From Acetobacteraceae bacterium (GTDB taxonomy: Bacteria; Pseudomonadota; Alphaproteobacteria; Acetobacterales; Acetobacteraceae): 64,000 nucleotides of DNA. The notes under the pieces were generated by a model that saw only the letters and a program-made list of their open reading frames with translations, did not search any database and had not been told where the DNA came from. Location: positions 12,082 through 76,081 of the forward strand of contig JADLHF010000191.1 of assembly GCA_020848935.1 (NCBI GenBank), read 5' to 3'. The translations under genes and the position numbers were made by a program. Of this stretch, positions 8,320 to 63,276 are shown one piece after another; position 1 is the first letter of the stretch, and every line of letters begins with the position of its first letter.

Positions 8320-9422
8320 AGCTATCCGACCTCCCCACCCCCTGCCTTGTGCTCGACCGCACCGTGCTGGCGCGCAACATCGACCGCATGGCCCAGGCGG
8401 TCGGCCGGCTCGGCGTGGCCCTGCGGCCGCACATGAAGACCGCCAAGTCGATCGACGTGGCCCGCATGGTGCTGGCCAACCATGCTGCCCCGCTTTCCGG
8501 CATCACCGTCTCCACCCTTGCGGAGGCGGAATACTTCGCGGCGCACGGGATCACCGACATCCTCTATGCCGTCGGCATCACGCCGCACAAGCTGGACCAG
8601 GTGGCCAAGCTGAACGCGGCCGGCGCCGAGGTGAAGGTCGTCACCGACGACCTGGACATGGCCCGCGCCATCGCCGCCCACCCCGGCCGCCACCACGCGC
8701 TGATCGAGATCGATTGCGGCGAGATGCGCGGCGGCATCCCGCCCGGCGACCCGCAACTTGAAGCCATCGGCGCGGCCCTCGGCGACCGCCTGCTGGGCAT
8801 CATGACGCATGCCGGCCATTCCTATGCCGGCCGCACGATTGCCGAAATGGCCGATATCGCCGAGGCCGAACGCAACGCCGCCCTTGCCGCGGCCCGCCGC
8901 CTGCGGGCCGCCGGCATGGCCTGCCCGATGGTCTCGGTGGGCTCCTCGCCCACCGCCCTGCATGCCCGCGCGCTGGGCGGCGTCACGGAAACCCGGCCCG
9001 GCGTCTATATGTTCGGCGACCTGTTCCAGGCCGAGATCGCCACCGTCGAACCCGACGGAATCGCGGTGACCGTCCTGGCCAGCGTGATCGGCCGCCGCCC
9101 GGCGGAACGGCGAATCGTCATCGACGCCGGCGGCATGGCATTGTCCAAGGACCGCGCCACCGAATCCGCGCCGCACGACTTCAAGTTCGGCCTGGTGTTG
9201 GACCAGGACGGCCGCCGCACCCTGGGAAACTCGCTGGTGGCGCGCGCCAACCAGGAACACGGCGTGGTCGATCTGGACACCACCATCGATTTCCGCATCG
9301 GCGACCGGGTGCGCGTGGCGCCCAACCATACCTGCATGACCTCGGCGGCGCATGACCGATACTATGTGGTCGATGGCGGGGACGAAGTGGTCGCCGTTTG
9401 GCCCAGGATAGGAGGATGGTAA
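8307..9422 (+). CDS. D-TA family PLP enzyme (D-threonine aldolase / D-serine deaminase-like, alanine racemase N-terminal fold)
   Basis: LPTPCLVLDRTVLARNI, the PLP-lysine context RPHMKTAKS, and ..VAPNHTCMT... The start is GTG at 8307 or GTG at 8316 (the latter a GTGA overlap with the M81 stop). Confidence 0.8.
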   Translation: MDAVKLSDLPTPCLVLDRTVLARNIDRMAQAVGRLGVALRPHMKTAKSIDVARMVLANHAAPLSGITVSTLAEAEYFAAHGITDILYAVGITPHKLDQVAKLNAAGAEVKVVTDDLDMARAIAAHPGRHHALIEIDCGEMRGGIPPGDPQLEAIGAALGDRLLGIMTHAGHSYAGRTIAEMADIAEAERNAALAAARRLRAAGMACPMVSVGSSPTALHARALGGVTETRPGVYMFGDLFQAEIATVEPDGIAVTVLASVIGRRPAERRIVIDAGGMALSKDRATESAPHDFKFGLVLDQDGRRTLGNSLVARANQEHGVVDLDTTIDFRIGDRVRVAPNHTCMTSAAHDRYYVVDGGDEVVAVWPRIGGW

Positions 9423-10880: not shown

Positions 10881-12086
10881 ATGAACGGGGCGGCACGAAT
10901 GCGCGCGGCATGGCGAAATGGCGTGCGGCTGGACGGGCCGGCGGCGCGCGCCGCGCTGGCGCTGGTGCTGGCTGCCGGAGTGTTCGTGGCCTGGCGGATC
11001 GGCGCACGCCAGTGGCCGGTGATCGCCAGCGGCAACAAGGTGTTCAGCGACCTGTTCGCGCATTGGAGCTACGCCGGCTTCGCCGCCGCCCATCCCGGCC
11101 CGGCAATCTACGACCGCGAGGCGATGTCCGCCTTCCAGCACGGCCTGTTCGACGGACGGTTGCAGGGCCTGCCATTCGCCTATCCGCCACCCTATCTGTT
11201 CCTGGTGCTGCCGCTGGCGGCATTCACCGTCTGGCACGCCGCCCTGCTGTGGGGCGCCGCCTCACTGGCCGCCTTCGCCGCCGCCATCGCCCCCCGGCCG
11301 TGGCGCGCCGATCCCCTGGCGCCCTCCTTGCTGGTGCTGGCGATCCTGGCGCCATCGACCATCGTCTGCCTGGGCTATGGCCAGAACGGCCTGCTGATCG
11401 CGGCCCTGCTGGCCGGCGGGCTGCGCCTGCTGCCGACACGGCCGGGCTGGGGCGGCGTGCTGCTGGCGCTGGCCTGCGTGAAGCCGCAAATGGCCGTGCT
11501 GCTGCCGGTGGCGCTGCTGGCGGGGCGGCAATGGCGCGCCATCGCCGCCGCAGTGGCAACCGGGCTGCTGTTGGTGTTGGCCAGTGCCGCCTGGATCGGC
11601 CCGCTGGCCTGGATCGACTGGATCGCCGCGCTGCGCGAACAGGGCGATTACGCCGCGCGCTGGATCGGCCCCCACCGCCAGCCCACCGTCGCGGCCACAA
11701 TGACGCTGTTCGGCATGGACCGCGCCAGTGGCCTGGCGGTGCAGGCCGCTGTAACCACGGCCGTGGTCCTTGGCGTGGTCGCCGCCTGGCGCCGCGGCCC
11801 CAGCGCCGCCGCCGCCGGCGCCGTCTTGGCCGGCGCATTGCTGGCAACACCCTATGGCTTCAACTACGATCTGCCGGTGGCAACCGCCGCGGTGGCCGCA
11901 CTCGTCGCCGGCCGCCGCCGCGTCTCCTGGCCGGAAGCGGCGGTGATGGCGGCCACCCTGCTGCTGCCAATGGTGCTGCACCTGACCAGCCGCTTCTTCT
12001 GGACCGCGCCGGTGACTCTGGCGGCACTCTTCGTCCTGTGCGTGTGGCGCGCATGCAGTGAGCAAGAAAGACTCTTCTTTTTCTGA
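10881..12086 (+). CDS. DUF2029 / GT87-like polytopic membrane glycosyltransferase-like protein
   Basis: The protein is multi-TM and hydrophobic, with ..LACVKPQMAVLLP.. and FNYDL segments typical of GT87-like mannosyltransferase relatives. The last ~8 codons (SEQERLFFF*) and the stop lie inside repeat copy 3. Confidence 0.6.
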   Translation: MNGAARMRAAWRNGVRLDGPAARAALALVLAAGVFVAWRIGARQWPVIASGNKVFSDLFAHWSYAGFAAAHPGPAIYDREAMSAFQHGLFDGRLQGLPFAYPPPYLFLVLPLAAFTVWHAALLWGAASLAAFAAAIAPRPWRADPLAPSLLVLAILAPSTIVCLGYGQNGLLIAALLAGGLRLLPTRPGWGGVLLALACVKPQMAVLLPVALLAGRQWRAIAAAVATGLLLVLASAAWIGPLAWIDWIAALREQGDYAARWIGPHRQPTVAATMTLFGMDRASGLAVQAAVTTAVVLGVVAAWRRGPSAAAAGAVLAGALLATPYGFNYDLPVATAAVAALVAGRRRVSWPEAAVMAATLLLPMVLHLTSRFFWTAPVTLAALFVLCVWRACSEQERLFFF

Positions 12087-12205
12087 AGAAAAAGAAGCAA
12101 AAATACTTCATCCCATATCCTTTGCGCGGCACCCTGGTGCCCCATGCTCCAATGAATGAAAGTTTTTTGGTTCTTTTTTTCAAAAAAGAACACACTTCCT
12201 ACCCT
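12063..12205 (+). repeat. AT-rich double-hairpin element, copy 3 (CTGAAG unit on the left, GTTC unit on the right)
   Basis: CAAGAAAGACT-CTTCTTTTTCTGAAGAAAAAGAAG-CAAAAATACTTCA, centre, GAATGAAAGTTTTTTG-GTTCTTTTTTTCAAAAAAGAAC-ACACTTCCTACCC. It contains the stop of the GT87-like gene (TGA in the loop) and the xerC stop (TAG at 12199-12201). Confidence 0.92.
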
Positions 12206-14471: not shown

Positions 14472-16703
14472 ATGGCGGACCGGAACAGGAAGCGCGCAGC
14501 CCAACCGGACCTCGCGGTCGATGCCGCCGCGCCCACCGGGCGCGGTCAAACCGTGCCCGTCCTGCTGCCCTATCCCTTCGCCGGCCCGTTCGATTACCGC
14601 GTCCCGCCCGCCATGGCGGTGGCGCCCGGCGACGTGGTGCTGGTGCCGCTGAACCGCCGCAGCGAAATCGGCGTGGTGTGGGACGGCCCGCCCGACGGCA
14701 GCATCGGCGACAACCGCCTGCGCCCCATTTCCGGCCCGGTGGACGCCCCCCCGATGCGCGCCGATATCCGCCAACTGGTGGACTGGATCGCCGCCTACAC
14801 CGTCTCGCCCCCCGGCACCGTGCTGGCCATGGCGCTGCGCGTGCCCGCCATCCCGGCCGAGCCGCCGCCGGTCGGCTGGCAGCGCGCCGACGCGCCGCCA
14901 CCGGCGCGCATGACCGAGGCGCGGCAGCGCGTGCTGGCCGCTCTCGGCGACACCCATATGCCCGGCCCCGACCTCGCCCGTGCCGCCGGCGTCTCCCCCG
15001 CGTTGCTGCGCGGCATGGCCGCCGCCGGCCTGCTGATCCCCGTCGCCCTGCCGGTTCCGCCGCCCTTCACCCGGCCCGACCCCGACCACCCCGGCCCCGC
15101 CTTGTCCGCCGACCAGGAAGCCGCCGCCGCGGACCTGCGCACCGCCGTCGCGGCCCAAGCCTTCAGCGTCACCCTGCTCGACGGCGTCACCGGCTCCGGC
15201 AAGACCGAAATCTACCTGGAGGCAATCGCCGAATGCCTGCGCCACGGCCGACAGGCGCTGGTGCTGCTGCCGGAAATCGCCCTGTCCTCGCAGTGGCTCG
15301 CCCGCTTCGAACGCCGCTTCGGCGTCGCCCCGGCGGTCTGGCATTCCGACCTGCCGTCACGCACCCGCCGCATCACCTGGCGCGAGGTGGCCGCCGGCGC
15401 CGCCCCGGTGGTGGTCGGCGCCCGCTCCGCCCTGTTCCTGCCCTTCCCCGATCTCGGCCTGGTGGTGGTGGACGAGGAGCACGAGACCGCCTTCAAGCAG
15501 GAGGAAGGCGTGGTCTATCATGCCCGCGACATGGCCGTGGTGCGCGCCCGCCTCTGCGCCGCCCCCGCCGTGCTGGTCTCCGCCACGCCCAGCCTGGAGA
15601 CCATCGCCAATGTCGAGGCCGGCCGCTACCACCGCCTGCATTTGCCCGACCGCTTCGGCGGCGCCAAGCTGCCGAGGGTGGAATTGCTCGACCTGCGCGA
15701 GTCGCCCCCCGAACGCGGCCACTTCCTCGCCCCCAAGCTGATCGAGGCGATCCGGGAAACCTTCGCCCGCGGCGAACAGGCGATGCTGTTCCTCAACCGC
15801 CGCGGCTACGCGCCCCTGACCCTGTGCCGCACCTGCGGCCACCGCATGCAGTGCCCCAACTGCACCGCCTGGCTGGTCGAACACCGCGCCCGCCGCATCC
15901 TGCAATGCCACCATTGCGGCCACACCATCCCCATCCCCGCCGAATGCCCCGAATGCAAGGCCGCCCACAGCCTCACCGCCGTCGGCCCCGGCGTGGAACG
16001 CATCACCGAGGAAGCCCGCGCCACCTTCCCCGACGCCCGCCTGCTGGTGATGGCCTCCGACACCCTCACCGGCCCCCACGCCGCCGCCGAAGCCGCCCGC
16101 GCCATCGAGGCCCGCGAGGTCGACCTGATCATCGGCACCCAGATCGTCGCCAAGGGCTGGCACTTCCCCTACCTCACCCTGGTCGGCGCCATCGACGCCG
16201 ATCTCGGCCTGGCCGGCGGCGACCTGCGCGCCGCCGAACGCACCGTCCAGCTCCTCCACCAGGTCGCCGGCCGGGCCGGGCGCGCCGACGCCCCTGGCCG
16301 CGTCCTGCTCCAGACCTGGTCGCCCGAGCACAAGGTGATGCAGGCCCTGCTCTCCGGCGACCTGGAAAGCTTCCGCGACAACGAAGCCGCCGAACGCCGC
16401 CCCGGCAACTGGCCGCCCTACGGCCGCCTCGCCGCCCTGATCGTCTCCGCCGACACCGCCGAAGCCGCCGATATCGCCGCCCGCGACCTCGGCCGCGCCG
16501 CCCCCATGGCCGATGGCATCCTGGTGCTCGGCCCCGCGCCGGCCCCCCTGGCCATCCTGCGCGGCCGCCACCGCCGCCGCCTGCTGCTCAAGGCCCGCCG
16601 CGACGTGGCGGTGCAACCGCTGATCCGCACCTGGCTCGCCAGCGTCGCCACCGGGCGCGGCGTGCGGGTGGATGTGGATATCGATCCGGTGAGCTTTCTG
16701 TAA
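14472..16703 (+). CDS. priA: Primosomal protein N' (replication restart helicase PriA)
   Basis: Walker [15 protein letters not shown], and the Cys-rich zinc region [20 protein letters not shown]...LQCHHCGH...CPECK. The exact start is uncertain. Confidence 0.9.
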
Positions 16704-16848
16704 CAAGGCAAAGAAAGTCTTCTTTTTGTGAACAAAAAGAAGCAAAAAAACTTCAATACCTATCCATATTGTGGCACCGCTGTGCCCCCACACGCCAACG
16801 AATGAAAGTTTTTTGGTTCTTTTTTTCAAAAAAGAACCTTCTTCCTTA
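16704..16848. repeat. AT-rich double-hairpin element, copy 4 (GTGAAC unit plus GTTC unit)
   Basis: CAAGGCAAAGAAAGT-CTTCTTTTTGTGAACAAAAAGAAG-CAAAAAAACTTCA, centre, GAATGAAAGTTTTTTG-GTTCTTTTTTTCAAAAAAGAAC-CTTCTTCCTTA. It starts 1 nt after the priA TAA and contains the tlpA-like TAA (16846-16848). Confidence 0.92.
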
Positions 16849-17454
16849 TTCTACCATCTGCCTTAACTCAGCCACCGTCGCCGCACTGGCCCAGTCGATC
16901 GCCCCTTCCACCCGGCCGCGCTCGCGCCCCTGCCGGTCGATCACCAGCGTGGTCGGCAGCCCCCGCGCCCCCCAGGCCCGCGCCGCCTCGCCGCGCGGGT
17001 CCAGCAGCACCGGCAGGGCGTCGATCCCGTTCGCGGCGTAGAAGCGCCGCACCACCTCCGCCCCGCCGCGATCGCTGGACAGCGGCAGCACCAGGATGCC
17101 GTCACCCGCCACGGCGCGGGCCAGGGCTTGCAGTTCCGGCATCTCGGCCACGCAGGGCGCGCACCAGGTCGCCCACAGATTCACCACCAGCCCATGCCCC
17201 AGATGCTCAGCCAGGCTGCGTTCGCCGCCCTCGCCATCGCGAAACACTGCCGCCGCCGGCACCGCGGGCGGCTCGGTGCGGCGCAGATTGGCGATGGTGC
17301 CCACCTTCACCGCCGGCGGCCCCGGCATCGCGCCCGGCACCAGTGTCTGGATGGCGGGCCCGCCGGGTTTGCGCAGCAGGGCGACGGCGGCTAGGGTCCC
17401 GGCCGCGACAATCCCGCCGGCGGTGAGCAGCGCACGGCGAGTGGTGGTATTCAT
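16846..17454 (-). CDS. TlpA family thiol:disulfide oxidoreductase (thioredoxin fold, membrane anchored)
   Basis: MNTTTRRALLTAGGIVAAGTLAAV anchor, NLWATWCAPCVAEMP (WCxxC), and GLPTTLVID. It is divergent from argH, as in many Alphaproteobacteria. Confidence 0.82.
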   Translation of the reverse strand: MNTTTRRALLTAGGIVAAGTLAAVALLRKPGGPAIQTLVPGAMPGPPAVKVGTIANLRRTEPPAVPAAAVFRDGEGGERSLAEHLGHGLVVNLWATWCAPCVAEMPELQALARAVAGDGILVLPLSSDRGGAEVVRRFYAANGIDALPVLLDPRGEAARAWGARGLPTTLVIDRQGRERGRVEGAIDWASAATVAELRQMVE

Positions 17455-17489: not shown

Positions 17490-18899
17490 GTGACCGACAC
17501 GCCCGACCTGCGCAACACAACATCCAACGCCCAATGGGGCGGCCGCTTCGCCGCCGGTCCCTCGGTGGTGATGCAGGAGATAAATGCCTCCATCGGCTTC
17601 GACCGCAAGATGTGGCGCCAGGATATCCAGGGCTCGCTCGCCCACGCCGCCATGCTGGTGCGCATCGGCATCCTGACGGCAAAGGACGGATCGGACATCC
17701 AATCCGGCCTGGAAGCCATCGCCGCCGAGATCGACGCCGGAAAATTCCCCTTCGACGAAGCCCTCGAAGACATCCACATGAACATCGAGGCCCGGCTCAC
17801 CGAGCGCATCGGCGATGCCGGCCGCCGCCTGCACACCGGGCGCAGCCGCAACGACCAGGTCGCCACCGATTTCCGCCTCTGGGTCCGCGACGCCATCGAC
17901 GGGCTCGATGCCCAGCTCGCCGACGTCATGACCGCCCTGGCCACCCGCGCCGCCCAGCACGCCGCCGACCCGATGCCCGGCTTCACCCACCTGCAAACCG
18001 CCCAGCCCGTCACTTTCGGCCACCATCTCCTGGCCTATGTCGAGATGCTGTCGCGCGACCGTGGCCGGCTGGCCGATTGCCGCCGCCGCCTCAACGAATG
18101 CCCGCTCGGCTCCGCCGCCCTGGCCGGCACCTCCTTCCCGCTCGACCGCGAGATGACCGCCCGCGCCCTGGGCTTCGACCGTCCCACCGCCAACTCGCTG
18201 GATGGCGTGTCCGACCGCGACTTCGCGCTGGAATTCCTCTCCGCCGCCGCCATCTCCGCCATGCACATGTCGCGCCTGGCAGAGGAAATGATCATCTGGT
18301 GCAGCGCGCCCTACCGCTTCATCCGCCTGTCCGACGCCTTCACCACCGGCAGCTCGATCATGCCGCAAAAGCGCAACCCCGACGCCGCCGAGCTGGTCCG
18401 CGCCAAGACCGGCCGCATCAACGGCGCCCTGGTCGGCCTGCTCACCGTCATGAAGGGCCTGCCGCTCGCCTATGCCAAGGACATGCAGGAAGACAAGGAA
18501 CAGGTCTTCGATGCCGCCGAGGCCTGGGCGCTGTGCCTCGCCGCCACCGCCGGCCAGGTGCGCGACATGACCCCGAACCTGGAGCGCATGCGCGAATTCG
18601 CCGGCTCCGGCTTCGCCACCGCCACCGACCTGGCCGACTGGCTGGTCCGCGTGCTGAAGCTGCCGTTCCGCACCGCCCACCACGTCACCGGCCGCCTGGT
18701 CGCCAAGGCCGAAGCCCGCAACATCGACCTCGCCGAACTCACCCTGGCCGACATGCAGGCCGAAGAGCCCGGCATCACCCAGGACATCTTCGGCGTGCTC
18801 ACCGTGGATGCCTCGGTCGCCTCCCGCTCGGTCTATGGCGGCACCGCGCCGTCCAATGTCGCGGCGCAGGCGCAAAGGTGGTTGGAGAAGCTGAAGTGA
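17490..18899 (+). CDS. argH: Argininosuccinate lyase
   Basis: [10 protein letters not shown]..., [11 protein letters not shown], and the fumarate-lyase signature [16 protein letters not shown]. Confidence 0.93.
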
Positions 18900-29755: not shown

Positions 29756-29765
29756 CGCATTCACC

Positions 29766-29846
29766 CATGAACGAAAGTTTCTGCTTCTTTTTCCAAAAAG
29801 AAGCGCTTGTTCTTTCTTGAAAAAAAGAACCAAGAAACACCATCAC
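29766..29846. repeat. AT-rich hairpin units, copy 7 (two units joined by their GGAAGG-type ends, no centre)
   Basis: CATGAACGAAAGTTTCTG-CTTCTTTTTCCAAAAAGAAG-CGCT then T-GTTCTTTCTTGAAAAAAAGAAC-CAAGAAACACCATCA. The glycosyltransferase TGA (29843-29845) lies in the degenerate CATTCA tail. Confidence 0.8.
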
Positions 29847-32800
29847 TTGGCGTGCGCCAATGCAACGCCCGGCCGCGCCTTCCGCGCCTTGCGCGCCACC
29901 CCCAGCGTCGCCGACATCTCGGCCAGATAGGCAAGCTGCCGCGCCTCATCCACCGCGTCGCCCAGCACCGCGCGGGCATGCGCCTGCGCCCGGGCGATCT
30001 CGTCCAGGTGGCGCACCGGGTCCATCCCCGCCGTCACCCCCGCGGCATGGCGGCGATGGCGGTTCAACGGCGTCGCCACCCACGCCACCTGCCCCTCGCT
30101 GCGCCCCAGCAGGTCCAGGTACAGATGCCAGTCCCCGGCCATCCGATACTCCGCCAATGCCGGCGCACAGCGGGCTAATGCCGCCCGCAGCGCCGAGCGG
30201 CGGAACAGAATGGCGCTGGCATTGACCAGGAGATTCCGCTCGCCCAGGAACCGCGCCGCGAACTCCCGTGCCGCGAACAGCCCGTCCTGCGCCAGCGCCG
30301 TCACCCCGGCGGCGGCGAAATATTCCTGGTGGCTCTTCCACAGCACCGCGCCCGCGCCATCCACCGCATCGCTGTCGCAGGCCACCGCCACCACGTCCTC
30401 GCCCGTCCCCAGCCGCGCCGCCAGCGCCGCCAGCAGCGCGGGGTCGGCCTCGTCGTCGGACTCGGCAATCCACACCCACTCCCCCGTCGCCCGCTCCACG
30501 CCGCGGCGCCACTGCGCGAACACGCTGCCGGAGTTGCGCCGGTTGGCCACCACCGCCAGCTCCCGCCCCCACGCCGTCGCCTCCGCGCGCGCCACCGCCA
30601 GGCTGTCATCGCCCGAGGCATCGTCCAGCAGCAGCACCTCGGCCACCGGATGGCTCTGGCCGAACACCGACCCCAGCCGCGCGCCCAGATGGCGGGCATG
30701 GTTGTAGTTCGGCACCACCACGCTGATCCGCGCCAGCGCCGGCAACGCCTCGCCCAGCAGGCGCGCGGCGTAGCGCGGGAAATCGAACGCCGCCTGCGCC
30801 CGCCGCGCGGTGTCCAGCCGCGGCGGCGGCGCGGCCAGCAGGCGGGCCAGGGCGGCGGCCATCTCCGGCGGATCGCCCATCGCCACCGCCGCCCCGCCCC
30901 ACTCCGCCAGCATCGGCGCCGTCCCGCCCGCCCCCTCGAACGCCACCACCGGCAACCCGGCCGCCAGCGCCTCCAGCGCCACGGTCGGGAACGGGTCCTC
31001 GCGCGACGGCAGGCAGAACGCATCCGCGGCACTGAACCAGTCCGCCGCATCGTCGCGAAACCCCGGCCGCAGGAACCGCCCGCCCGCCTCGGCGGCGGCG
31101 ATCTCCGGCCCGAGATACGACAGCAGCGCCGGCTCGATCGCCCCGATCCAGGCAAACACCACATCGCCACACCGTCGCGACAGCGCCCGCCAGACCTGGA
31201 GGAACAGGTCGAACCCCTTGCGCATGTCGCCATACCCGGCCCCCAGCACCAGGGGCGTGCCGGCATCCAGCCCCAACTCGGCCCGCAGCCGCTCCCGCGC
31301 GGTGGCATCGAACGCCACGGCGCGATAATTGCCCTGCGGCAGCACCAGCGCCGCCTCCGGCGCGAAATCGGCCACGGTGGCAAATCCATCGCGCACCGCC
31401 GGCGCCGCGAACACGATCCGCCGCGCCGCCGCCGCCCCCGCCCGCGCCGCCCCGCGCGCCCCCTTCTCCGCCAGCAACCGCGGCAGCTCGTGCACCAGCA
31501 GCGTGGCGTCGATGCCCGCCTCGGCCAACAGCGGCACCACCGCCCCGCTGACCGCGCTGTTCACCAGCGCCGCACCAAACCCGCGCGCCGCACAGCCGGC
31601 CAGATGCGCCGGCCAGGAGGCGGCATCCGCCAGCACCGTGGTCGGCGCCACCGCCGCGAACTCGTCGCGCAGCGCCCCGCCGCCCAGCAGCAGGATCTCC
31701 AGCCGCATCCCATGCGCCCGCCACAACTGCCGCGCCAGATGCAGCAGCAGCATCTGCGCGCCGGCCGGAAAGGCATCGTGCCCCACCAGCAGCAGCCCCG
31801 GCACGGCCGCGCCCTCCACCCGGCTCGAACCCGCCTGGCCGGTCACCGCCCGGGCCGTCGCGTTCAGATAGGCGCCGCCGTAATGCACGTCCGGCTCCAG
31901 ATACGCCGCCTCCGCCCATTCGTTCCAGGCATTGACGCACACCAGCGCCTCGCCCCCCACCGGCGCCGCCTGCGCGCGCGCCACCAGGGCCGCCAGCCAC
32001 GCCTGGTATTTCGCCGGCGACGCCCCGTGCAGCACCAGCCCCGCCCCCTGCCGCCGCGCGTCGTTGTCCCATGACGGCACCGCCGTCTTGATCAGCGGAA
32101 ACGCCGGCTCCGCCTCGCCCAGCGAGGCCGCCGCCACGTCGTCATAGGCGAACACCTGCGCCGTGGCACTCGGGTCGAAATAGGTCAGCTCGCCATTGCG
32201 CATCGCCAGCCCGCCCACCAGCTTGTGCGGCGGGAACTCGACGGCGGCATCGAAGCCCAGCGGCCGCGGGTCCATGGCGTCGAAGCTTTGCGACATCACC
32301 AGCAGCGGGTCCTCGCCATGCCGCGCGCGGAACAATTCCCGCCACCGCGCCACCCGCATCGCGGTATCGGGGATCAGCGCCGGGCGATACAGCATCAGCA
32401 GCGCCCGCCCCTGCAGCCGGATATAGCGGGGGTCGGCGAAATGCCGCGCCAGGCAATCCACCAGCGCCTCGTCGTCCGCCTCGCGGTAATCCTGCGCGAT
32501 CAGCACATCCTTGTCGCCGCCATCCCACCGCCGCGTCCAGTTCTCGTTCGCCCACATCAGGCAGAACGGAAAATCCACCCCGCGGTCGGCCAGCATCGCC
32601 TCCACCGGCCGTTCCAGCAGCCGCCGCCCGTTGAACCAGTAGAAGTAGTGCACGAAGCCGCCCAGCCCCGCCCCGCGCGCCAGCGCCACCTGCCGGCGCA
32701 GCGTCGCCGTGCCCTCCAGCGTATAATGGCCCAGGTCGCGCGGCACCCGCGGCTGGTAATGCCCCTGGAACCGCGGCATCGCCCGCGCCGCCGAGGTCCA

Positions 32801-34089: not shown

Positions 34090-35133
34090 ATGACCGCACC
34101 CCGCATGCCATACCGCCCCCTCGGCCGCAGCGGCCTGAAGGTCTCGCCGCTCTGCCTCGGCGCCATGATGTTCGGCGGCCCCACCGACGAAGCCACTTCC
34201 CGCGCCATCGTCGATCGCGCCCGCGACCAGGGCATCAACTTCATCGACACCGCCGATGCCTACAACAACGGCGCCTCCGAGGAGGTCGTCGGCCGCGCCA
34301 TCGCCGCCCGCCGCAACTGGTGGGTCGTCGCCACCAAGCTCGCCAACCCCACCGGCGAAGGCCCCAACGGCACCGGCACCTCCCGCGGCCACGTCCAGCG
34401 CGCCACCGAGGCCAGCCTCCGCCGCCTCGGCGTGGAAGCCATCGACATCATGTACCTCCACAAGGAAGACCACTCCACGCCGCTGGAGGAAACCGTCCGC
34501 GCCCTGGCCGACCTCATCCGCGCGGGAAAACTCCGCCACTTCGGCGTCTCCAACCACCGCGCCTGGCGCCTGGCCGAAATCTGCCGCCTCTGCGACCAGG
34601 CCGGCATCGACCGCCCCGTCGCCAGCCAGCCGCTCTACAACGCGCTGAACCGCATGATCGAGGTCGAGCACCTGCCCGCCTGCGCCCATTTCGGCGTCGG
34701 CGTCTTCCCCTACTCCCCCCTCGCCCGCGGCGTGCTCACCGGCAAATACACCCCCGACATCCCGCCCCAGCCCGGAACCCGCGCCGGCCGCCAGGACCGC
34801 CGCATGATGGAAACCGAATGGCGCCCGGAATCGCTGCACCTCGCCCGCGCCATCGCCGAACACGCCGAAGCCCGCGGCACCACCGCCAGCCGCTTCGCCC
34901 TCGCCTGGGTGCTGAACAACCAGCTCGTCACCGGCGCCATCGCCGGGCCGCGCACCATGGAGCAATGGGACGACTACCTCGCCGCCCTGGACGTCCGCCT
35001 CACGCCGGACGACGAAGCCTTCATCGACCGCCTCGTGCCGCCGGGCCATCCCTCCAGCCCCGGATACAACGATCCCGCCTATCCCATCGAGGGGCGGGTC
35101 GTCAGGCAGCAGGAAGGAAGCGCTTCTTTTTGA
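34090..35133 (+). CDS. Aldo/keto reductase family oxidoreductase
   Basis: YRPLGRSGLKVSPLCLGAMMFG, INFIDTADAYNNGASEE, DIMYLHKED and FGVSNH. The last codons and the TGA (35131-35133) lie inside repeat copy 8. Confidence 0.9.
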   Translation: MTAPRMPYRPLGRSGLKVSPLCLGAMMFGGPTDEATSRAIVDRARDQGINFIDTADAYNNGASEEVVGRAIAARRNWWVVATKLANPTGEGPNGTGTSRGHVQRATEASLRRLGVEAIDIMYLHKEDHSTPLEETVRALADLIRAGKLRHFGVSNHRAWRLAEICRLCDQAGIDRPVASQPLYNALNRMIEVEHLPACAHFGVGVFPYSPLARGVLTGKYTPDIPPQPGTRAGRQDRRMMETEWRPESLHLARAIAEHAEARGTTASRFALAWVLNNQLVTGAIAGPRTMEQWDDYLAALDVRLTPDDEAFIDRLVPPGHPSSPGYNDPAYPIEGRVVRQQEGSASF

Positions 35134-36892: not shown

Positions 36893-37042
36893 GGAAGGAA
36901 GGCCAGGGCTTTGCCCCGGACCCCACCAGGGACCCGAGGTCCCTGGACCCTCGGTCATTTTCGCCTTCGGCGAGCAAACGAATGGGGTCTGGGGCCCCCG
37001 GCCCCAGCGGGTCGAGGGCAGAGCCCTCGCCTTCCTTCCTTC
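36893..37042. repeat. GC-rich inverted-repeat element with the same GGAAGGAAGG / CCTTCCTTCC ends as the AT-rich family
   Basis: GGAAGGAAGGCCAGGGCTTTGCCCCGGACCCC...TTCGCCTTCGGCGAGCAAACGAATGGGGTCTGGGGCCCCCGGCCCC...GAGGGCAGAGCCCTCGCCTTCCTTCC. The arms are mutually complementary. The internal ACGAATG junction is the one that precedes right-hand units of the AT-rich elements. Confidence 0.8.
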
Positions 37043-45350: not shown

Positions 45351-46538
45351 ATGCCCCGCATTGCGCGCCCCGACATCATCCGCCCGCAACGCCTGTGGGC
45401 GGCGCTGCTGGCGGCGACGTTGCTGAACCTGCCGCTGGGCTCGGTGTATTCGTTCAGCGTGTTCCTGCGGCCGATCGAGCTGGACCTGGCAATCCCGCGC
45501 TCGGCGCTGTCGCTGGTGTTCGGGATGGCGACGGTGGGATTCACCGTGGGCTCGGTGGGGGCGGCGTTTCTGTATCGACTGGCGCCGGCGGCGGTGCTGG
45601 TGTTTGCCGCTGCCGCCTGGGCCGCCATGGGGATCGGGGTGGCGGCGATGGCGAGCGGGATGGCGCAGCTTCTGCTCGGCTACGGCGTGGCGTTCGGCAC
45701 CGGTGGGGGGGTGGCCTATATCCTGTTGCAGCAGGGGGTGAACCTTCTGCTGCGGCGGCGGCAGGGGCTGGTGAACGGCTATATCGTCAGCCTGTATCCG
45801 CTGGGGGCGATGATCGCGACGCCGGTCTTCCACTGGTGCAACGAGAATTTCGGCTGGCGCACCACCCTGGCCGGGCTGGCGGTGGTGCTGGTGGTGTTCG
45901 GGGCCGTGGCGGCATGGCTGGTGCATCACGGCGGGGCGCGGCTGGCGGCGCCGGCGGGGAGCGCGCCGGTTGTCCCGGCGCGGCTGGGGCTGACATTCGT
46001 CAAGCTTGCCGCGACGTTCTTCCTGGCGGCCTCGGCGGGGCTGATGGTGCTGAGCCAGGCGCGGGAGATCGTGGCCGCCTATGGCGGGGCGGTGGCGCTG
46101 GCGGTGGGGGCCACCACCGGGATCACCGCGGCGATCGCATTGGCGCGGGTGAGCGGCGGGTGGCTGGTGGATCGCTTCGCGGTGCCGCATGTGATGTGCT
46201 CGGCGCATGGGCTGGCGCTGGGCGGGGCGGTGCTGCTGACGGCGTATCCCGCACCGGTGACCGCGGTGCTGGGGCTGGGGATGGTGGGGATGGGCTATGG
46301 CTTCATATCCGGCTCGACGGCCGGGAGCATCGCGCTGTACTGGCCAGTGGCGGATTTCGGGCGGGTGGCGGGGCGGACCTATATCGCCTGGTGCGCGGCG
46401 GCGGTGGGGCTGCCGGTGCTGGCGGGGTATCTGTTCGACCTGACCCAAGGCTATGCGGCGGCGGTGGTGATCGCGGGAGCGGGCAACCTGGCGGGCATGG
46501 CGGTGGCTTTGAGCTTGCCACGGAAAGACTCAAGGTAA
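45351..46538 (+). CDS. MFS transporter (oxalate/formate antiporter-like, OFA family)
   Basis: It starts MPRIARPD... and has LNLPLGSVYSFSVFL plus about 12 hydrophobic segments. This is the 3' part of track ORF 43134..46538. The TAA forms the first 3 nt of repeat copy 10. Confidence 0.8.
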   Translation: MPRIARPDIIRPQRLWAALLAATLLNLPLGSVYSFSVFLRPIELDLAIPRSALSLVFGMATVGFTVGSVGAAFLYRLAPAAVLVFAAAAWAAMGIGVAAMASGMAQLLLGYGVAFGTGGGVAYILLQQGVNLLLRRRQGLVNGYIVSLYPLGAMIATPVFHWCNENFGWRTTLAGLAVVLVVFGAVAAWLVHHGGARLAAPAGSAPVVPARLGLTFVKLAATFFLAASAGLMVLSQAREIVAAYGGAVALAVGATTGITAAIALARVSGGWLVDRFAVPHVMCSAHGLALGGAVLLTAYPAPVTAVLGLGMVGMGYGFISGSTAGSIALYWPVADFGRVAGRTYIAWCAAAVGLPVLAGYLFDLTQGYAAAVVIAGAGNLAGMAVALSLPRKDSR

Positions 46539-46648
46539 GAAAGATCTTCTTTTTCTGAAGAAAAAGAAGCAAAAAGACTTTTTATTCATTAGGATAGATC
46601 TTATTATAGAAAGTTTTTTGGTTCTTTTTTTCAAAAAAGAACACTTTC

Positions 46649-46652
<4 letters not shown>
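46536..46652 (+). repeat. AT-rich double-hairpin element, copy 10 (CTGAAG unit on the left, GTTC unit on the right)
   Basis: TAAGAAAGAT-CTTCTTTTTCTGAAGAAAAAGAAG-CAAAAAGACTTTTTATTCATT, a 17-nt centre, AGAAAGTTTTTTG-GTTCTTTTTTTCAAAAAAGAAC-ACTTTCTTACTC. It spans exactly from the MFS TAA to the ABC exporter TAA (46649-46651). Confidence 0.93.
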
Positions 46653-48382
<1,730 letters not shown>

Positions 48383-57396: not shown

Positions 57397-59438
57397 TGTA
57401 CGCCATCGGGATCGATGTCGGTGGGACCTTCACCGACCTGGTGGCGGTGGATGCCGCCGGCACGGTGACGCTGGCCAAAGCCGCCTCCACCCCCGAGGAC
57501 CAGTCGCTGGGGGTGATGGCGGGGTTGGGCCGGCTGGCGGAAGCGCTCGGCGTTCCGCAAGCCGCCATGCTGGCCGCGACCCTGCGCATCGTGCATGGCA
57601 CCACGGTGGCCACCAACGCGCTGTTGGAACGCAAGGGGGCGCGCGTCGGGCTGCTGACCACCGAGGGCCATCGCGACATCATCGAGATGCGCGAGGGGCT
57701 GAAGGATGACCGCTACAATCTGCGCCAGGCGCCGCCGGAACAGCTGGTGCCGCGCCATCTGCGGCTGGGGGTGCGCGAGCGCATCCGGCCCGATGGGCGG
57801 ATCGAGATCCCGCTCGACCGCGCCTCGCTGGATGCCGCCATCGCGGTGCTGCGCGACGAGCGGGTCGATTCGGTGGCGATCTGCACCCTGCATGCCTGGC
57901 GCGACGGGCGGCATGAGCGGGCGATGGCCGAGGCGGTGCGGGCCGCGATGCCCGGTGCCTATGTCTGCCTGTCCTGCGAGGTGCTGCCGCAGATCAAGGA
58001 ATACGACCGGGTCTGCACCACGGTGGTCAACGCCTATGTCGGACCGGCGCTGCAACGCTACCTCACCCGGCTGGAGGAGCGCCTGCGCGCCGGCGGCTAT
58101 GGCGGGCCGGTGCTGATCATCCAGTCCCATGGCGGTGTGGCGACCATCGCGGACGCGGTGGCGTTGTCGGCCGGCGCGGTGCTGTCCGGCCCGGCCGGCG
58201 GGGTGGCCGGCAGCTGCCATGCCGCCAGCCTGATCGGGCATGGCGACCTGATCCCGTTCGACATGGGCGGCACCTCGACCGATATCTCGCTGGTGGTGGG
58301 CGGGCAGGCCACGATTGCCTCGGACCGGCGGCTGGCCGGGCAGCGGGTGGCGTTGCAGAGCCTGGACATCGCCAGCATCGGTGCCGGCGGCGGCTCGATC
58401 GCGCGCGTCGATGCCGGGGGGGTGCTGCATGTCGGGCCGGAAAGCGCGGGGGCGCAGCCGGGGCCGGCGTGCTACGGGCGCGGCGGCGTGGACGCGACGG
58501 TGACCGATGCCAACCTGGTGCTGGGCTTTCTCGATCCCGATAATTTTCTTGGCGGGCGGACGAAGCTCGATGTCGCGTCGGCCGTGGCGGCGGTGGACCG
58601 GGTGGCGGGGCGGCTGGGGGTGGACCGGATGGCGGCGGCCGAGGGCATCCACCGCATCATCAATACCCGCATGGCCGAGGGCATCCGCCTGGTTTCGGTG
58701 CGCCGAGGGGTTGATCCGCGCCGCTTCGCCATCCTGTCGTTCGGGGGGGCGGCGGCGCTGCATGTCACCGACGTGGCGCGCCAGCTCGACCTGAAGCGGG
58801 TGATCGTGCCGCGCGTGGCGGCGGTGCTGTCGGCCTGGGGGATGCTGGCGTCGGACCTGCGCTACGAGATCGCCCGCACCCATATCGGCGATGCCAGCCG
58901 GCTGGACGCCGCAGGGCTGCGCGCCGCCTGGGCCGGGATGGAGGAGGATGGCCGCGCCCGCCTGGCCGCCGCGCAGTTCGACGGCCCGGTGCGGACCCAC
59001 CGTTCGGCCGACATGCGCTATGGCGAGCAGATTTTCGAAGTGGCCGTGCCGCTGGACGGCATCGACTTCGCCCGGCCGGACCTGACTTCGGCGCTGGCCG
59101 ACGCCTTCCACCGCCAGCACGAGGCGCTCTACACCTACGCCATGCCCGACCAGGAGGCGGTGCTGGTCAATGCCCGCGTGGCCGTGGTGGGAGGGCTGCC
59201 CGCCCTGCCGCGCGAACCCGCGCTGCAGGGCGGGCCGGACGCCGTGGCGCGGGGGATGCGGCGCCTCTACCTCGGGGCATGGCGCGAGGTGGAGGTGTTC
59301 GACTTCGACAGCCTGGCGCCGGGACAGGGGATCGTCGGGCCGGCGGTGGTGGAATCGGCCACGACCACGGTGCTGCTGCGCGACGGGGACCGTGCACGGG
59401 TGACCGGGTTTGGATGGCTGGATGTGGCGGTAGGGTAA
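57396..59438 (+). CDS. Hydantoinase A / oxoprolinase family protein
   Basis: MYAIGIDVGGTFTDLV, GTTVATNALLERKGA, FDMGGTSTDISL and ..YGEQIFEV... The TAA forms the first 3 nt of repeat copy 13. Confidence 0.9.
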   Translation: MYAIGIDVGGTFTDLVAVDAAGTVTLAKAASTPEDQSLGVMAGLGRLAEALGVPQAAMLAATLRIVHGTTVATNALLERKGARVGLLTTEGHRDIIEMREGLKDDRYNLRQAPPEQLVPRHLRLGVRERIRPDGRIEIPLDRASLDAAIAVLRDERVDSVAICTLHAWRDGRHERAMAEAVRAAMPGAYVCLSCEVLPQIKEYDRVCTTVVNAYVGPALQRYLTRLEERLRAGGYGGPVLIIQSHGGVATIADAVALSAGAVLSGPAGGVAGSCHAASLIGHGDLIPFDMGGTSTDISLVVGGQATIASDRRLAGQRVALQSLDIASIGAGGGSIARVDAGGVLHVGPESAGAQPGPACYGRGGVDATVTDANLVLGFLDPDNFLGGRTKLDVASAVAAVDRVAGRLGVDRMAAAEGIHRIINTRMAEGIRLVSVRRGVDPRRFAILSFGGAAALHVTDVARQLDLKRVIVPRVAAVLSAWGMLASDLRYEIARTHIGDASRLDAAGLRAAWAGMEEDGRARLAAAQFDGPVRTHRSADMRYGEQIFEVAVPLDGIDFARPDLTSALADAFHRQHEALYTYAMPDQEAVLVNARVAVVGGLPALPREPALQGGPDAVARGMRRLYLGAWREVEVFDFDSLAPGQGIVGPAVVESATTTVLLRDGDRARVTGFGWLDVAVG

Positions 59439-62094: not shown

Positions 62095-62220
62095 GGGTGG
62101 GAAGGGGGTGTTCTTTTTTGAAAAAAAGAACCAAAAAACTTTCAGTCATAAGAGTAGGCGGGAGCAATCTTATTATCAAAAAGTCTTTTTGCTTCTTTTT
62201 CTTCAGAAAAAGAAGATCTA
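62095..62220 (-). repeat. AT-rich double-hairpin element, copy 14 (GTTC unit on the left, CTTCAG unit on the right)
   Basis: GGGTGGGAAGGGGGT-GTTCTTTTTTGAAAAAAAGAAC-CAAAAAACTTTCAGTCA, centre, AAAAGTCTTTTTG-CTTCTTTTTCTTCAGAAAAAGAAG-ATCTA. It contains the pyrD TAG (62218-62220) and starts 5 nt from the HAD gene start. Confidence 0.9.
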
Positions 62221-63276
62221 AACATCTACGCCTACAGCATCGGCAATATTGGCGAATCCTTGCCGGTCCATCGCAGCGAGCAGTTGGCGTTTCAGGCGCG
62301 GGATCAATGCCGGGCCGGCATAGGCGAATTCGGAGTAGATCTGCACCAGTTGGGCGCCGGCGCGGATGCGGGCCAGGATGTCGTCGCCGGTGGCGATGCC
62401 GCCGACGCCGATCAGCGCGAGCCGGCCGGCGGCGGCGCGGGCGGCGGTCAGCAGGGCGGCCTGGGCGAGGGGTTTCAGGGGTGCGCCCGACAGGCCGCCG
62501 GCCTGGCTGGCGTTGGCCGAGCGCAGCCCGGGGGGGCGGCGGATGGTGGTGTTGCTGACGATCAGGCCGTCTGCGCCCTCGGCCGCCGCGGTTTCGACCA
62601 CGCTGGCGATGCCGTCCTCGGACAGGTCGGGGGCGATCTTGACCAGCAGCTTCGGGTGCACCGGCACGGCTTCGGCCACCGCGCGCAGGATCGATCGCAG
62701 CCGCGCCTCGCCCTGGAGGTCGCGCAGGCCGGGGGTGTTGGGCGAGGAGACGTTGATCACGATGTAGTCGCAATGCGGGGCGACGGCGGCGACCAGAGCG
62801 GGATAGTCACGCTCGGGGTCGGCGCCGTCCTTGTTGATGCCGATATTGGCGCCGACCGGCACGCCGATGGCGGCAAGCCGGGGGCGGGCGGCGGCAAGGC
62901 GGGGCAGGTAGGCGGCGATGCCGGCATTGTTGAAGCCCATGCGGTTGATCACCGCGCGGTCTTCGGCCAGGCGGAACAGGCGCGGGCGCGGATTGCCGGC
63001 CTGTGGGCGGGGGGTGACGGTGCCGGCCTCGACAAAGCCGAAGCCGAGGCACGCGAGCGGGCGCAGGACGCGGGCATCCTTGTCGAAGCCGGCGGCAATG
63101 CCGATCGGGTTGGGGAAGGTCAGGCCCAATGCTTGGACTGCCAGGCGGGGCGTGGCGCCGCCGCCGCCCTGGCCGCCCAGGCCGACGGCCAGGGCGGACA
63201 GGGCGAGAGTGTGCGCCGCCTCGGCGTCCATCAGGCGCAGCAACGGCATCACGGCAGACGCGAGGACGGGGTGCAT
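62218..63276 (-). CDS. pyrD: Dihydroorotate dehydrogenase (quinone), class 2
   Basis: FPNPIGIAAGFDKDA, GFGFVEAGTVTPRPQAGNPRPRLFRL, INRMGFNNAG, INVSSPNTPGLR and GGIATGDD. Confidence 0.93.
   Translation of the reverse strand: MHPVLASAVMPLLRLMDAEAAHTLALSALAVGLGGQGGGGATPRLAVQALGLTFPNPIGIAAGFDKDARVLRPLACLGFGFVEAGTVTPRPQAGNPRPRLFRLAEDRAVINRMGFNNAGIAAYLPRLAAARPRLAAIGVPVGANIGINKDGADPERDYPALVAAVAPHCDYIVINVSSPNTPGLRDLQGEARLRSILRAVAEAVPVHPKLLVKIAPDLSEDGIASVVETAAAEGADGLIVSNTTIRRPPGLRSANASQAGGLSGAPLKPLAQAALLTAARAAAGRLALIGVGGIATGDDILARIRAGAQLVQIYSEFAYAGPALIPRLKRQLLAAMDRQGFANIADAVGVDV

Follow-up and report, generated by a model that had tools for sequence, protein, structure and literature searches.

An AT-rich palindromic repeat abuts gene 3' ends and supplies stop codon bases in Acetobacteraceae

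The DNA analysed here, the window, is a stretch of 64,000 nt (contig C191, 12082-76081) from the draft genome G000 of an Acetobacteraceae bacterium (4.6 Mb in 301 contigs, 70% G+C, 95% complete); positions are those of the window unless a contig is named, and G005, G012 and similar handles denote the genomes of relatives. Between two convergent genes, identified by gene calls and Pfam as an MFS_1 gene and an ABC exporter gene, lies an AT-rich island at 46536-46652 (Table 1), one copy of a palindromic, non-coding repeat of about 140 nt that is dispersed in hundreds of copies through this GC-rich genome. Its outer purine arms run into the stop codons of both neighbours. The T of the MFS_1 stop TAA belongs to the gene, while the following AA is part of the purine arm; at the empty orthologous site of G005 the stop is TAG, one codon later. 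The ABC exporter has the identical C-terminus AAE in that empty site, where only the stop differs, TAG there against TAA here. The first-pass annotation had described the element as reaching exactly from one TAA to the other, which is right within one base, position 46652 lying one past the ABC stop. On either strand, the RNA of the element is predicted to fold into a single long hairpin (-45 and -42 kcal/mol, z -5.8 and -4.8), in which the MFS and ABC stop codons are paired together at the base of the stem. In G007, G002 and G008, a small extra minus-strand gene stands between the MFS and ABC exporter genes; G007 and G002 carry an AT-type element between the MFS stop and that of the small gene, and in G008 these stops are 3 nt apart with no element.

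Each end of the repeat consists, read inward, of a purine arm of about 13 nt (about AAGGAAGGAAGGT), a 22-24-nt AT-rich hairpin and an A-run, and the two ends are inverted around a variable centre. The usual unit combines one C-type (CTTC...GAAG) and one G-type (GTTC...GAAC) hairpin, both orders being equally common. With a loose pattern for one module, 770 hairpin modules were found in the G000 genome, including 277 inverted pairs whose hairpin-to-hairpin length peaks at 110-119 nt. The inverted modules measure about 50 nt each, and the small size, terminal inverted repeats and lack of coding capacity are those of MITEs (miniature inverted-repeat transposable elements). Among 126 aligned copies, the hairpins and adjoining A/T runs are conserved to about 99%, the arms to 50-90% and the centre to 35-70%; near-invariant hairpins beside drifting centres suggest selection or conversion between copies. 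On the inward-read strand the arm is almost only A and G, with T at 6-8% per arm position in ends far from genes versus 12-16% in ends flush with a stop.

Rfam gave no match at gathering score in the 64-kb window, and literature searches found no description of the present repeat family. An exact 30-mer of the C-type hairpin occurs in many Acetobacteraceae, among them Gluconacetobacter, Neokomagataea, Roseomonas, Pseudoroseomonas, Rhodovarius, Rhodovastum, Acidocella and metagenome-assembled genomes (MAGs) labelled Asaia; the carriers include the cultured strains Gluconacetobacter liquefaciens DSM 5603, Rhodovarius crocodyli CCP-6 and Pseudoroseomonas aestuarii KCTC 22692. A 29-mer of the G-type hairpin, searched with at most one mismatch, is present in 44-325 copies per genome in all 15 genomes of the genus, in 53 copies in one other genus of the family and in 6 in a second, and was not found in eight further genera of the family or in 16 genomes of other families. 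Variants of the unit exist as well. A subfamily in G005 (C19:16875, C5:54053, C15:34662 and C10:44741) has two C-type hairpins with GTGAAC loops and arms of 22-25 nt (about GAAAAGCCAAGTGGCAGGAAGAGT); there, the stop is located about 25 nt from the hairpin, yet at the arm edge. At the G005 site orthologous to the full AT-type element of G000 C90:2018-2121, a unit of about 45 nt carries the same arms (TAAAGGAAG...CTTCCTTTCT) around another short interior; either a copy that has collapsed or a third type with such arms may be present here.

The association of the element with stop codons is confirmed in the window, the genome and the family. Genes were called with a codon-bias caller trained on G000 (3857 genes; stops TGA 68%, TAG 25%, TAA 7%), and an independent frame method based on third-position G+C (GC3) gave the same peak of stop distances. 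Of the 770 module ends, 511 point to a gene's 3' end and 230 to a 5' end. A stop lies within 30 nt of the hairpin at 388 of the 511 gene-3'-facing ends and at 6-15 nt, that is inside the arm, at 264, while 15 stops lie inside the hairpin itself, where they are the TGA of the loop. In co-directional spacers, elements have a median free distance of -1 nt to the stop and of 42.5 nt to the start; the stop is the nearer of the two for 127 of 142 elements (p=3e-23), and 97 elements are flush with the stop versus 23.5 expected from uniform placement in the same spacers. Convergent spacers hold 103 elements, of which 47 are flush with both stops, 43 with a single one and 13 with none. Elements occupy 33.5% of the convergent, 9.6% of the co-directional and 3.8% of the divergent spacers, and about 9% of all G000 genes end in or at the repeat. 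At 111 loci of other Acetobacteraceae, genes run into the element with 127 stops, of which 90 begin 5-20 nt ahead of the hairpin; TAA and TAG account for 77% of these 90. The suspicion that elements sit non-randomly on stop codons, raised from the window alone, therefore holds genome-wide and across the family.

The stop codons themselves carry the mark of the element. Stops at elements are TAG in 45%, TGA in 34% and TAA in 20% of cases, versus 22%, 72% and 6% elsewhere (chi2=247, p=2e-54), so that 29% of the genome's TAA, 19% of its TAG and 5% of its TGA stops lie at an element. Because the inward-read arm holds only A and G, a T placed directly before an arm of AAGG period gives TAA, TAG or TGA in three of four registers. 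The stop type follows the position before the hairpin, with TAG predominating at -14/-13, TGA at -12, TAA at -11/-10 and TAG again at -9. In 234 of 262 flush ends, purines make up at least 80% of the stretch from stop to hairpin, which is as purine-rich as arms far from genes are, and between 5 and 15 nt of arm are left after the stop, with no fixed position of the junction. Since T is rare in arms far from genes, the T of the stop is the gene's own and the two purines are those of the arm. The element thus provides the last two bases of the stop, whose type follows the register of the arm and not the TGA habit of the genome.

Orthologous sites tell the same. In 1.48 Mb of G005, a relative whose genes are about 80-85% identical, 76 element loci could be compared; about 30 of them are filled in one of the two genomes and empty in the other, a presence/absence polymorphism that is likewise expected of a MITE. 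In alignments read by eye, the two genomes agree on the codon position of the stop at 13 flush ends, where the empty/filled stop pairs are TGA/TAG (five), TGA/TAA (three), TGA/TGA (two), TAG/TAA (two) and TAG/TAG (one). The stop type hence differs in 10 of 13, with TGA in the empty and TAA or TAG in the filled state in eight, and the reverse change was found in none of the 13 (sign test p=0.008). Drift is unlikely as the cause of these changes because TGA and TAG differ at two positions, and the stop usage of the empty sites is ordinary for the genome, which argues against a preference of the element for TA-containing stops.

A further suggestion of the first-pass annotation, that the repeat has remodelled the C-termini of several proteins, is borne out for the MFS, GT87 and aldo/keto reductase (AKR) genes by comparison with orthologues lacking the element; most flush ends leave the protein as it is and differ in the stop type alone, TGA when empty and TAA or TAG when filled. 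If the junction falls within the gene by a few codons, the frame runs on through the arm to a T of the arm or to the loop TGA, which yields a short element-encoded tail. For instance, the MFS protein (all tails are given up to the stop) ends LPRKDSR in G000 and LPRRGWRG at the empty G005 site; relatives carrying an element end in LPRRGWR, WRE or WRAV, and in G012 the frame is read to the TGA of the hairpin loop, giving LPKASKKAVLF. The GT87 tail is RACSEQERLFFF in G000 and RSIRADASAPTPP in the empty G005, where it overlaps the convergent gene; the latter ends RTHPRG with TAG at the same codon in empty G005 as in filled G000. The AKR ends in RVVRQQEGSASF in G000, while four relatives without the element end seven residues earlier in R(P/I)(V/A)RG, RG or RS. 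A GC-rich cousin of the element, described below, truncates this gene by four codons in G012, with a flush TAA. Other ends that differ between G000 and G005 are shifted by one to three codons, in addition to two extensions to a loop TGA.

What an element takes the place of can be read from the empty sites. In some empty convergent pairs the stops abut or overlap (TAGCTA at the MFS/ABC locus, CTAG, TAG-C-TCA), and some empty co-directional pairs share an ATGA or GTGA overlap. Convergent genes of the genus are often without any spacer, and their coding regions may overlap by up to about 40 nt, as at the GT87 locus of G005. At least five empty sites possess a spacer in which a T-run follows a GC-rich hairpin; filled sites lack this native spacer, and the element's centre does not preserve it, so that the element stands in the spacer's place and not beside it. 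The idea that the two modules are separate insertions around a native spacer was discarded, as the empty-site spacers show no likeness to element centres beyond that of shuffled sequences and the spacing peak at 110-119 nt is sharp.

The same arms also occur on a GC-rich palindromic element (GCCAGGGCTCTGCCCTGGACCC..., arms GGAAGGAAGG/CCTTCCTTCC), of which 71 half-sites were found; one copy lies at 36893-37042 of the window (paired at G000 C191:48982-49110), and there are 14 other paired copies. Of 39 stops incoming to this cousin, 19 lie no more than 20 nt away, and 52% of the nearby stops are TAG or TAA. One copy is polymorphic between two genomes about 95% identical, being present at G007:C84:33337-33557 and absent at G002:C104:13670-13675. 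The empty site in G002 is a GTGA stop/start overlap and the filled one in G007 reads GGA TGA [element] ATG ACC; at least 4 bases of target were duplicated here, because the GTGA overlap was split into TGA[element]ATGA. The codons beside this junction diverge more than the 95% background.

Elements of both types recur at the same gene ends. The element at 46536 has a module order opposite to, and a centre different from, those of the elements at this locus in seven relatives. More generally, the centres of orthologous elements in two species are no more alike than those of random pairs, and module order differs in 4 of 13. At several sites an AT-type element in one species faces a GC-type cousin in another; the AKR end is occupied by the AT-type in G000 and by the cousin in G012 and is empty in four relatives.

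How the element moves was approached through its target, a possible enzyme and a possible parent. When the inverted repeat was extended outward and the flanking 2-5-mers were compared with shuffled pairs, no target-site duplication emerged in 266 AT-type elements (11 matches of 2-mers versus 8.9 expected, none of 3-5-mers), and the one duplication observed belongs to a single locus of the GC-rich cousin. Duplicated TAA or TTA target sites at the element ends are not supported: the TAA...TTA pair of the 46536 element is inverted, not direct, and forms the base of the stem. Empty orthologous sites have no common motif, the base after the stop being C, T, A or G. Targeting of TA or of TAA/TAG, as for a Correia-like or IS630-Tc1-type MITE, was rejected, as empty sites mostly hold TGA, 34% of flush stops are TGA and no duplication was detected. 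With respect to the enzyme, G000 has no match to the transposase of repetitive extragenic palindromic (REP) sequences, the REP-associated tyrosine transposase (RAYT; Y1_Tnp, PF01797). Weak matches to PF01797 (28-29 bits, 222-aa open frame) occur in only three of the 15 genus genomes, which are closely related, while all 15 hold 44-325 modules, and the homologue in G007 has no module within 1.5 kb. A parent insertion sequence (IS) with the same ends was not found; the IS5-family loci in G000 lack GGAAGG-type ends, and draft MAGs often lack IS copies. Genes located between widely spaced modules are ordinary, in G000 as well as at the 111 loci of other genomes. In the fetched stretches of two closer pairs, G002/G007 (95%) and G010/G013 (about 90%), no polymorphism of the AT-type element was found and one of the GC-rich cousin. 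The second pair displays an insertion of another kind, about 150 nt long, directly after a TGA stop at G010:C75:15270-15418, with the hairpin CGAAATGCCGACTCTTCCGGCATTTCG, absent at G013:C31:29365.

To date, the same placement has been described for GTAG REPs, which lie at the ends of open reading frames (ORFs) and supply TAG stops (Di Nocera et al. 2013, PMC3733652); conv-REPs lie <20 bp from both ORF ends, and uni-REPs lie near the upstream ORF at varying distance from the downstream one. Our repeat is alike in being a high-copy palindromic intergenic repeat, often in inverted doublets, rare between divergent genes and without target duplication, and in lying within 20 bp of both ORF ends if these are convergent and near the upstream ORF, at varying distance from the downstream one, if they are co-directional. 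Unlike GTAG REPs, it has no GTAG/CGTC tag, and the gene's T together with the purine arm yields all three stops depending on register; it is also an AT-rich unit within a genome of 70% GC, measures about 140 nt, and has two unlike hairpins and no associated RAYT. The general phenomenon is already published for REPs, and what is particular here is that the arms give all three stops by register and that two interiors share the same arms.

Our repeat is also reminiscent of other mobile or dispersed elements. Correia elements (NEMIS/CREE) of Neisseria and other bacterial MITEs are 100-160 nt long, non-coding, bounded by terminal inverted repeats and present in hundreds of copies; they lie near genes, are co-transcribed with their neighbours, form a long hairpin and vary in presence among related genomes, and Correia elements duplicate a TA target. 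The present element shares the size class, inverted ends, copy number, gene proximity, long-hairpin fold and presence/absence polymorphism. In contrast to Correia elements, it shows neither duplication nor a TA requirement and no parent IS with matching ends was found, and its hairpin modules, unlike those of Correia elements and MITEs, are far more conserved than its centre. In work by Liang, Rudd and Deutscher from 2015, REP sequences of E. coli within 15 nt of a stop reportedly affect translation termination. Here too, the hairpin of the repeat begins within the footprint of a ribosome terminating at the stop; the stems are in contrast weak (A/T-rich) and the stop itself is partly derived from the repeat. 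The mycobacterial interspersed repetitive units (MIRUs) of Mycobacterium tuberculosis are tandem units inside operons that keep reading frames coupled. Ends that overlap codons of the flanking genes are common to both (stop and start codons in MIRUs), whereas the present element is a palindrome at 3' ends, far from starts.

An intriguing question is how the flush placement arose. Selection and compaction, which do not exclude targeting, seem to us to have about an even chance of being the explanation. Copies would persist almost only at 3' ends, where they would be harmless, as the element ends rebuild a stop. The element would replace a native spacer (in several empty orthologues, one containing a GC-rich hairpin and a T-run); the DNA between stop and element would then be dispensable and be lost up to the T, and the hairpins would persist either because selection maintains a function at 3' ends or because copies convert one another. 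The likeliest such function might be to end or stabilise transcripts from either side, the far arm's pyrimidine complement serving as a U-rich tail. At 46569-46546 and 59469-59446, both on the minus strand and with weak stems, a simple scan classed hairpin and pyrimidine arm together as terminator-like, and arms of AAGGAAGG type give CCUUCCUU tails; from such sequence features we infer a possible role of the element at transcript 3' ends. More speculatively, the repeat could be a mobile two-way 3'-end cassette, a hairpin pair that ends or stabilises transcripts and whose arms act as stop-codon rebuilders and U-rich tails, which would have displaced native intrinsic terminators at about one third of convergent pairs, with hairpins under purifying selection, and which, like the GC-rich cousin, would come and go at the same gene ends in different species, both presumably using the same machinery; we regard this extended picture as doubtful. 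Selection and compaction are supported by the missing native hairpins and by the strong difference between stop side and start side, and among the copies whose centres have diverged most a larger share is flush (70% versus about 50%, Fisher p=0.02), although this trend is weak. Several points weigh on the other side. The least diverged copies are already about 50% flush, so slow spacer loss is not the whole story; the polarity of empty and filled states is unrooted; the stems contain only two to three G-C pairs; the most stable fold of the whole element has the far arm paired and not as a free tail; and that elements settle repeatedly at the same gene ends in different species is explained at least as well by targeting as by selection.

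Targeting, in which a transposase or recombinase recognising the purine arms would insert elements at or within a few bases of stops or gene 3' boundaries, so that the flush geometry is made at insertion and not by later selection, is possible, though we hold it to be the less probable explanation. It would account for the flush state of about half of the youngest-looking copies, for the independent occupation of the same gene ends in different species (46536, AKR and the unlike orthologous centres), for insertion exactly beside the stop of one gene even inside the overlapping tail of the convergent gene, and for a GC-rich cousin with the same arms, the same stop tendency and, at the G002/G007 site, a target duplication of at least 4 bases. 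Yet some co-occupation is expected by chance at a baseline occupancy of 10-33% of gene ends, none of the 266 AT-type elements duplicated its target, the empty sites share no sequence and their ancestral stop was mostly TGA, as in the genome at large, the junction falls at no fixed arm position, and no enzyme was found, given that RAYT genes are absent from 12 of 15 genus genomes and not beside modules where present, and that IS5-family ends are unrelated. A REP/REPIN family moved by RAYT, an IS200-like Y1 transposase, with an outer tag that supplies the stop as GTAG does, would be compatible with the inverted doublets, the lack of target duplication and the placement, which is the one published for REPs (PMC3733652); this identity is nevertheless largely refuted by the missing tag and the missing RAYT association, and we consider it very improbable. 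No GTAG/CGTC tag or any other outer tetranucleotide is conserved, the base before the arm being unconserved away from genes, the transposase domain is lacking in G000 and most of the genus although every genome carries modules, its homologue in G007 stands apart from any module, and the unit of about 140 nt with long inverted ends is not a 20-40-nt palindrome. Least probable of all is chance or composition, which the data refute. A purine run after T often reads as a stop, as T plus two purines does in three of four cases, and element-free spacers are short (median 25 nt co-directional, 62 nt convergent), which could push any repeat near a stop; however, the counted stops are the in-frame ends of long, codon-biased ORFs, flush placement exceeds the uniform expectation about fourfold and favours the stop side, stop usage is shifted, and in orthologues the stop type changes with the presence of the element.

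The repeat affects the annotation of stops and C-termini as well as comparisons of stop usage in Acetobacteraceae, and it offers a countable case of a repeat that rewrites stop codons and adds short tails to real enzymes and transporters. Because the phenomenon is known from REPs, the surprise for the specialist is moderate. If the hairpins do end transcripts, they could provide a ready-made, compact two-way terminator for the industrially used acetic acid bacteria, and would be an example of a spreading element that replaces native terminators.

Table 1. Coordinates of the 46536-46652 element, of further stops at elements in the window, and of Y1_Tnp homologues in relatives
Feature	Position	Strand	Basis
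MFS_1 gene (45351-46538), stop TAA, gene end TCA AGG TAA	46536-46538	+	gene calls, Pfam
Left purine arm remainder GAAAGAT	46539-46545		sequence
C-type AT-rich hairpin CTTCTTTTTCTGAAGAAAAAGAAG = CTTCTTTTT-CTGAAG-AAAAAGAAG	46546-46569		~99% invariant, 126 copies
A-run CAAAAAGACTT, short AT-rich centre, T-run AAAGTTTTTTG	46570-46620		runs invariant, centre variable
G-type AT-rich hairpin GTTCTTTTTTTCAAAAAAGAAC = GTTCTTTTTTT-C-AAAAAAGAAC	46621-46642		sequence
Right arm ACTTTC, complement of purine arm	46643-46648		sequence
ABC exporter gene (46649-48373), stop TAA (TTA on + strand)	46649-46651	-	gene calls, Pfam
D-threonine-aldolase-like gene, stop TAA; arm GAAAGGAAGA and hairpin directly after	9420-9422	+	gene calls, Pfam
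Hydantoinase A gene, stop TAA; arm GAAAGGC and hairpin directly after	59436-59438	+	gene calls, Pfam
GT87 element-encoded tail SEQERLFFF and hairpin-loop TGA (12084-12086)	12057-12086	+	gene calls, Pfam, orthologue
Gene convergent to GT87, stop TAG (CTA), flush with right arm of the 12062-12198 element	12199-12201	-	gene calls, orthologue
Aldo/keto reductase (AKR) element-encoded tail QEGSASF and loop TGA (35131-35133)	35110-35133	+	gene calls, Pfam, orthologues
Gene 14472-16703, stop TAA, 16 nt before hairpin	16701-16703	+	gene calls
Gene 16846-17454, stop TAA, 9 nt from hairpin	16846-16848	-	gene calls
Gene 17490-18899, stop TGA, 6 nt from hairpin	18897-18899	+	gene calls
Gene 62218-63276, stop TAG, 3 nt from hairpin	62218-62220	-	gene calls
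Y1_Tnp homologue, 222-aa open frame	G002:C4:3983-4318		PF01797
Y1_Tnp homologue, 222-aa open frame	G007:C53:15978-16313		PF01797
Y1_Tnp homologue, 222-aa open frame	G009:C303:1064-1399		PF01797

Across the window, a gene runs into 19 of 25 module ends, and in 14 of these 19 its stop lies at most 16 nt from the hairpin or inside it. The junction GG-TAA-GAAAGG common to the D-threonine-aldolase-like and hydantoinase A genes, as well as the GT87 and AKR stops in the hairpin loop with the tails SEQERLFFF and EGSASF, had been read correctly at first pass. At 29763-29850, a C-type and then a G-type hairpin stand back to back with their arms facing and no centre, flanked by the genes for a 1408-aa repeat protein and a 1309-aa glycosyltransferase. 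Furthermore, a 24-nt unit (TGCTCCGCTCACTCCACGTTGATC) is present in five tandem copies, 73-100% alike, at 2036-2179.

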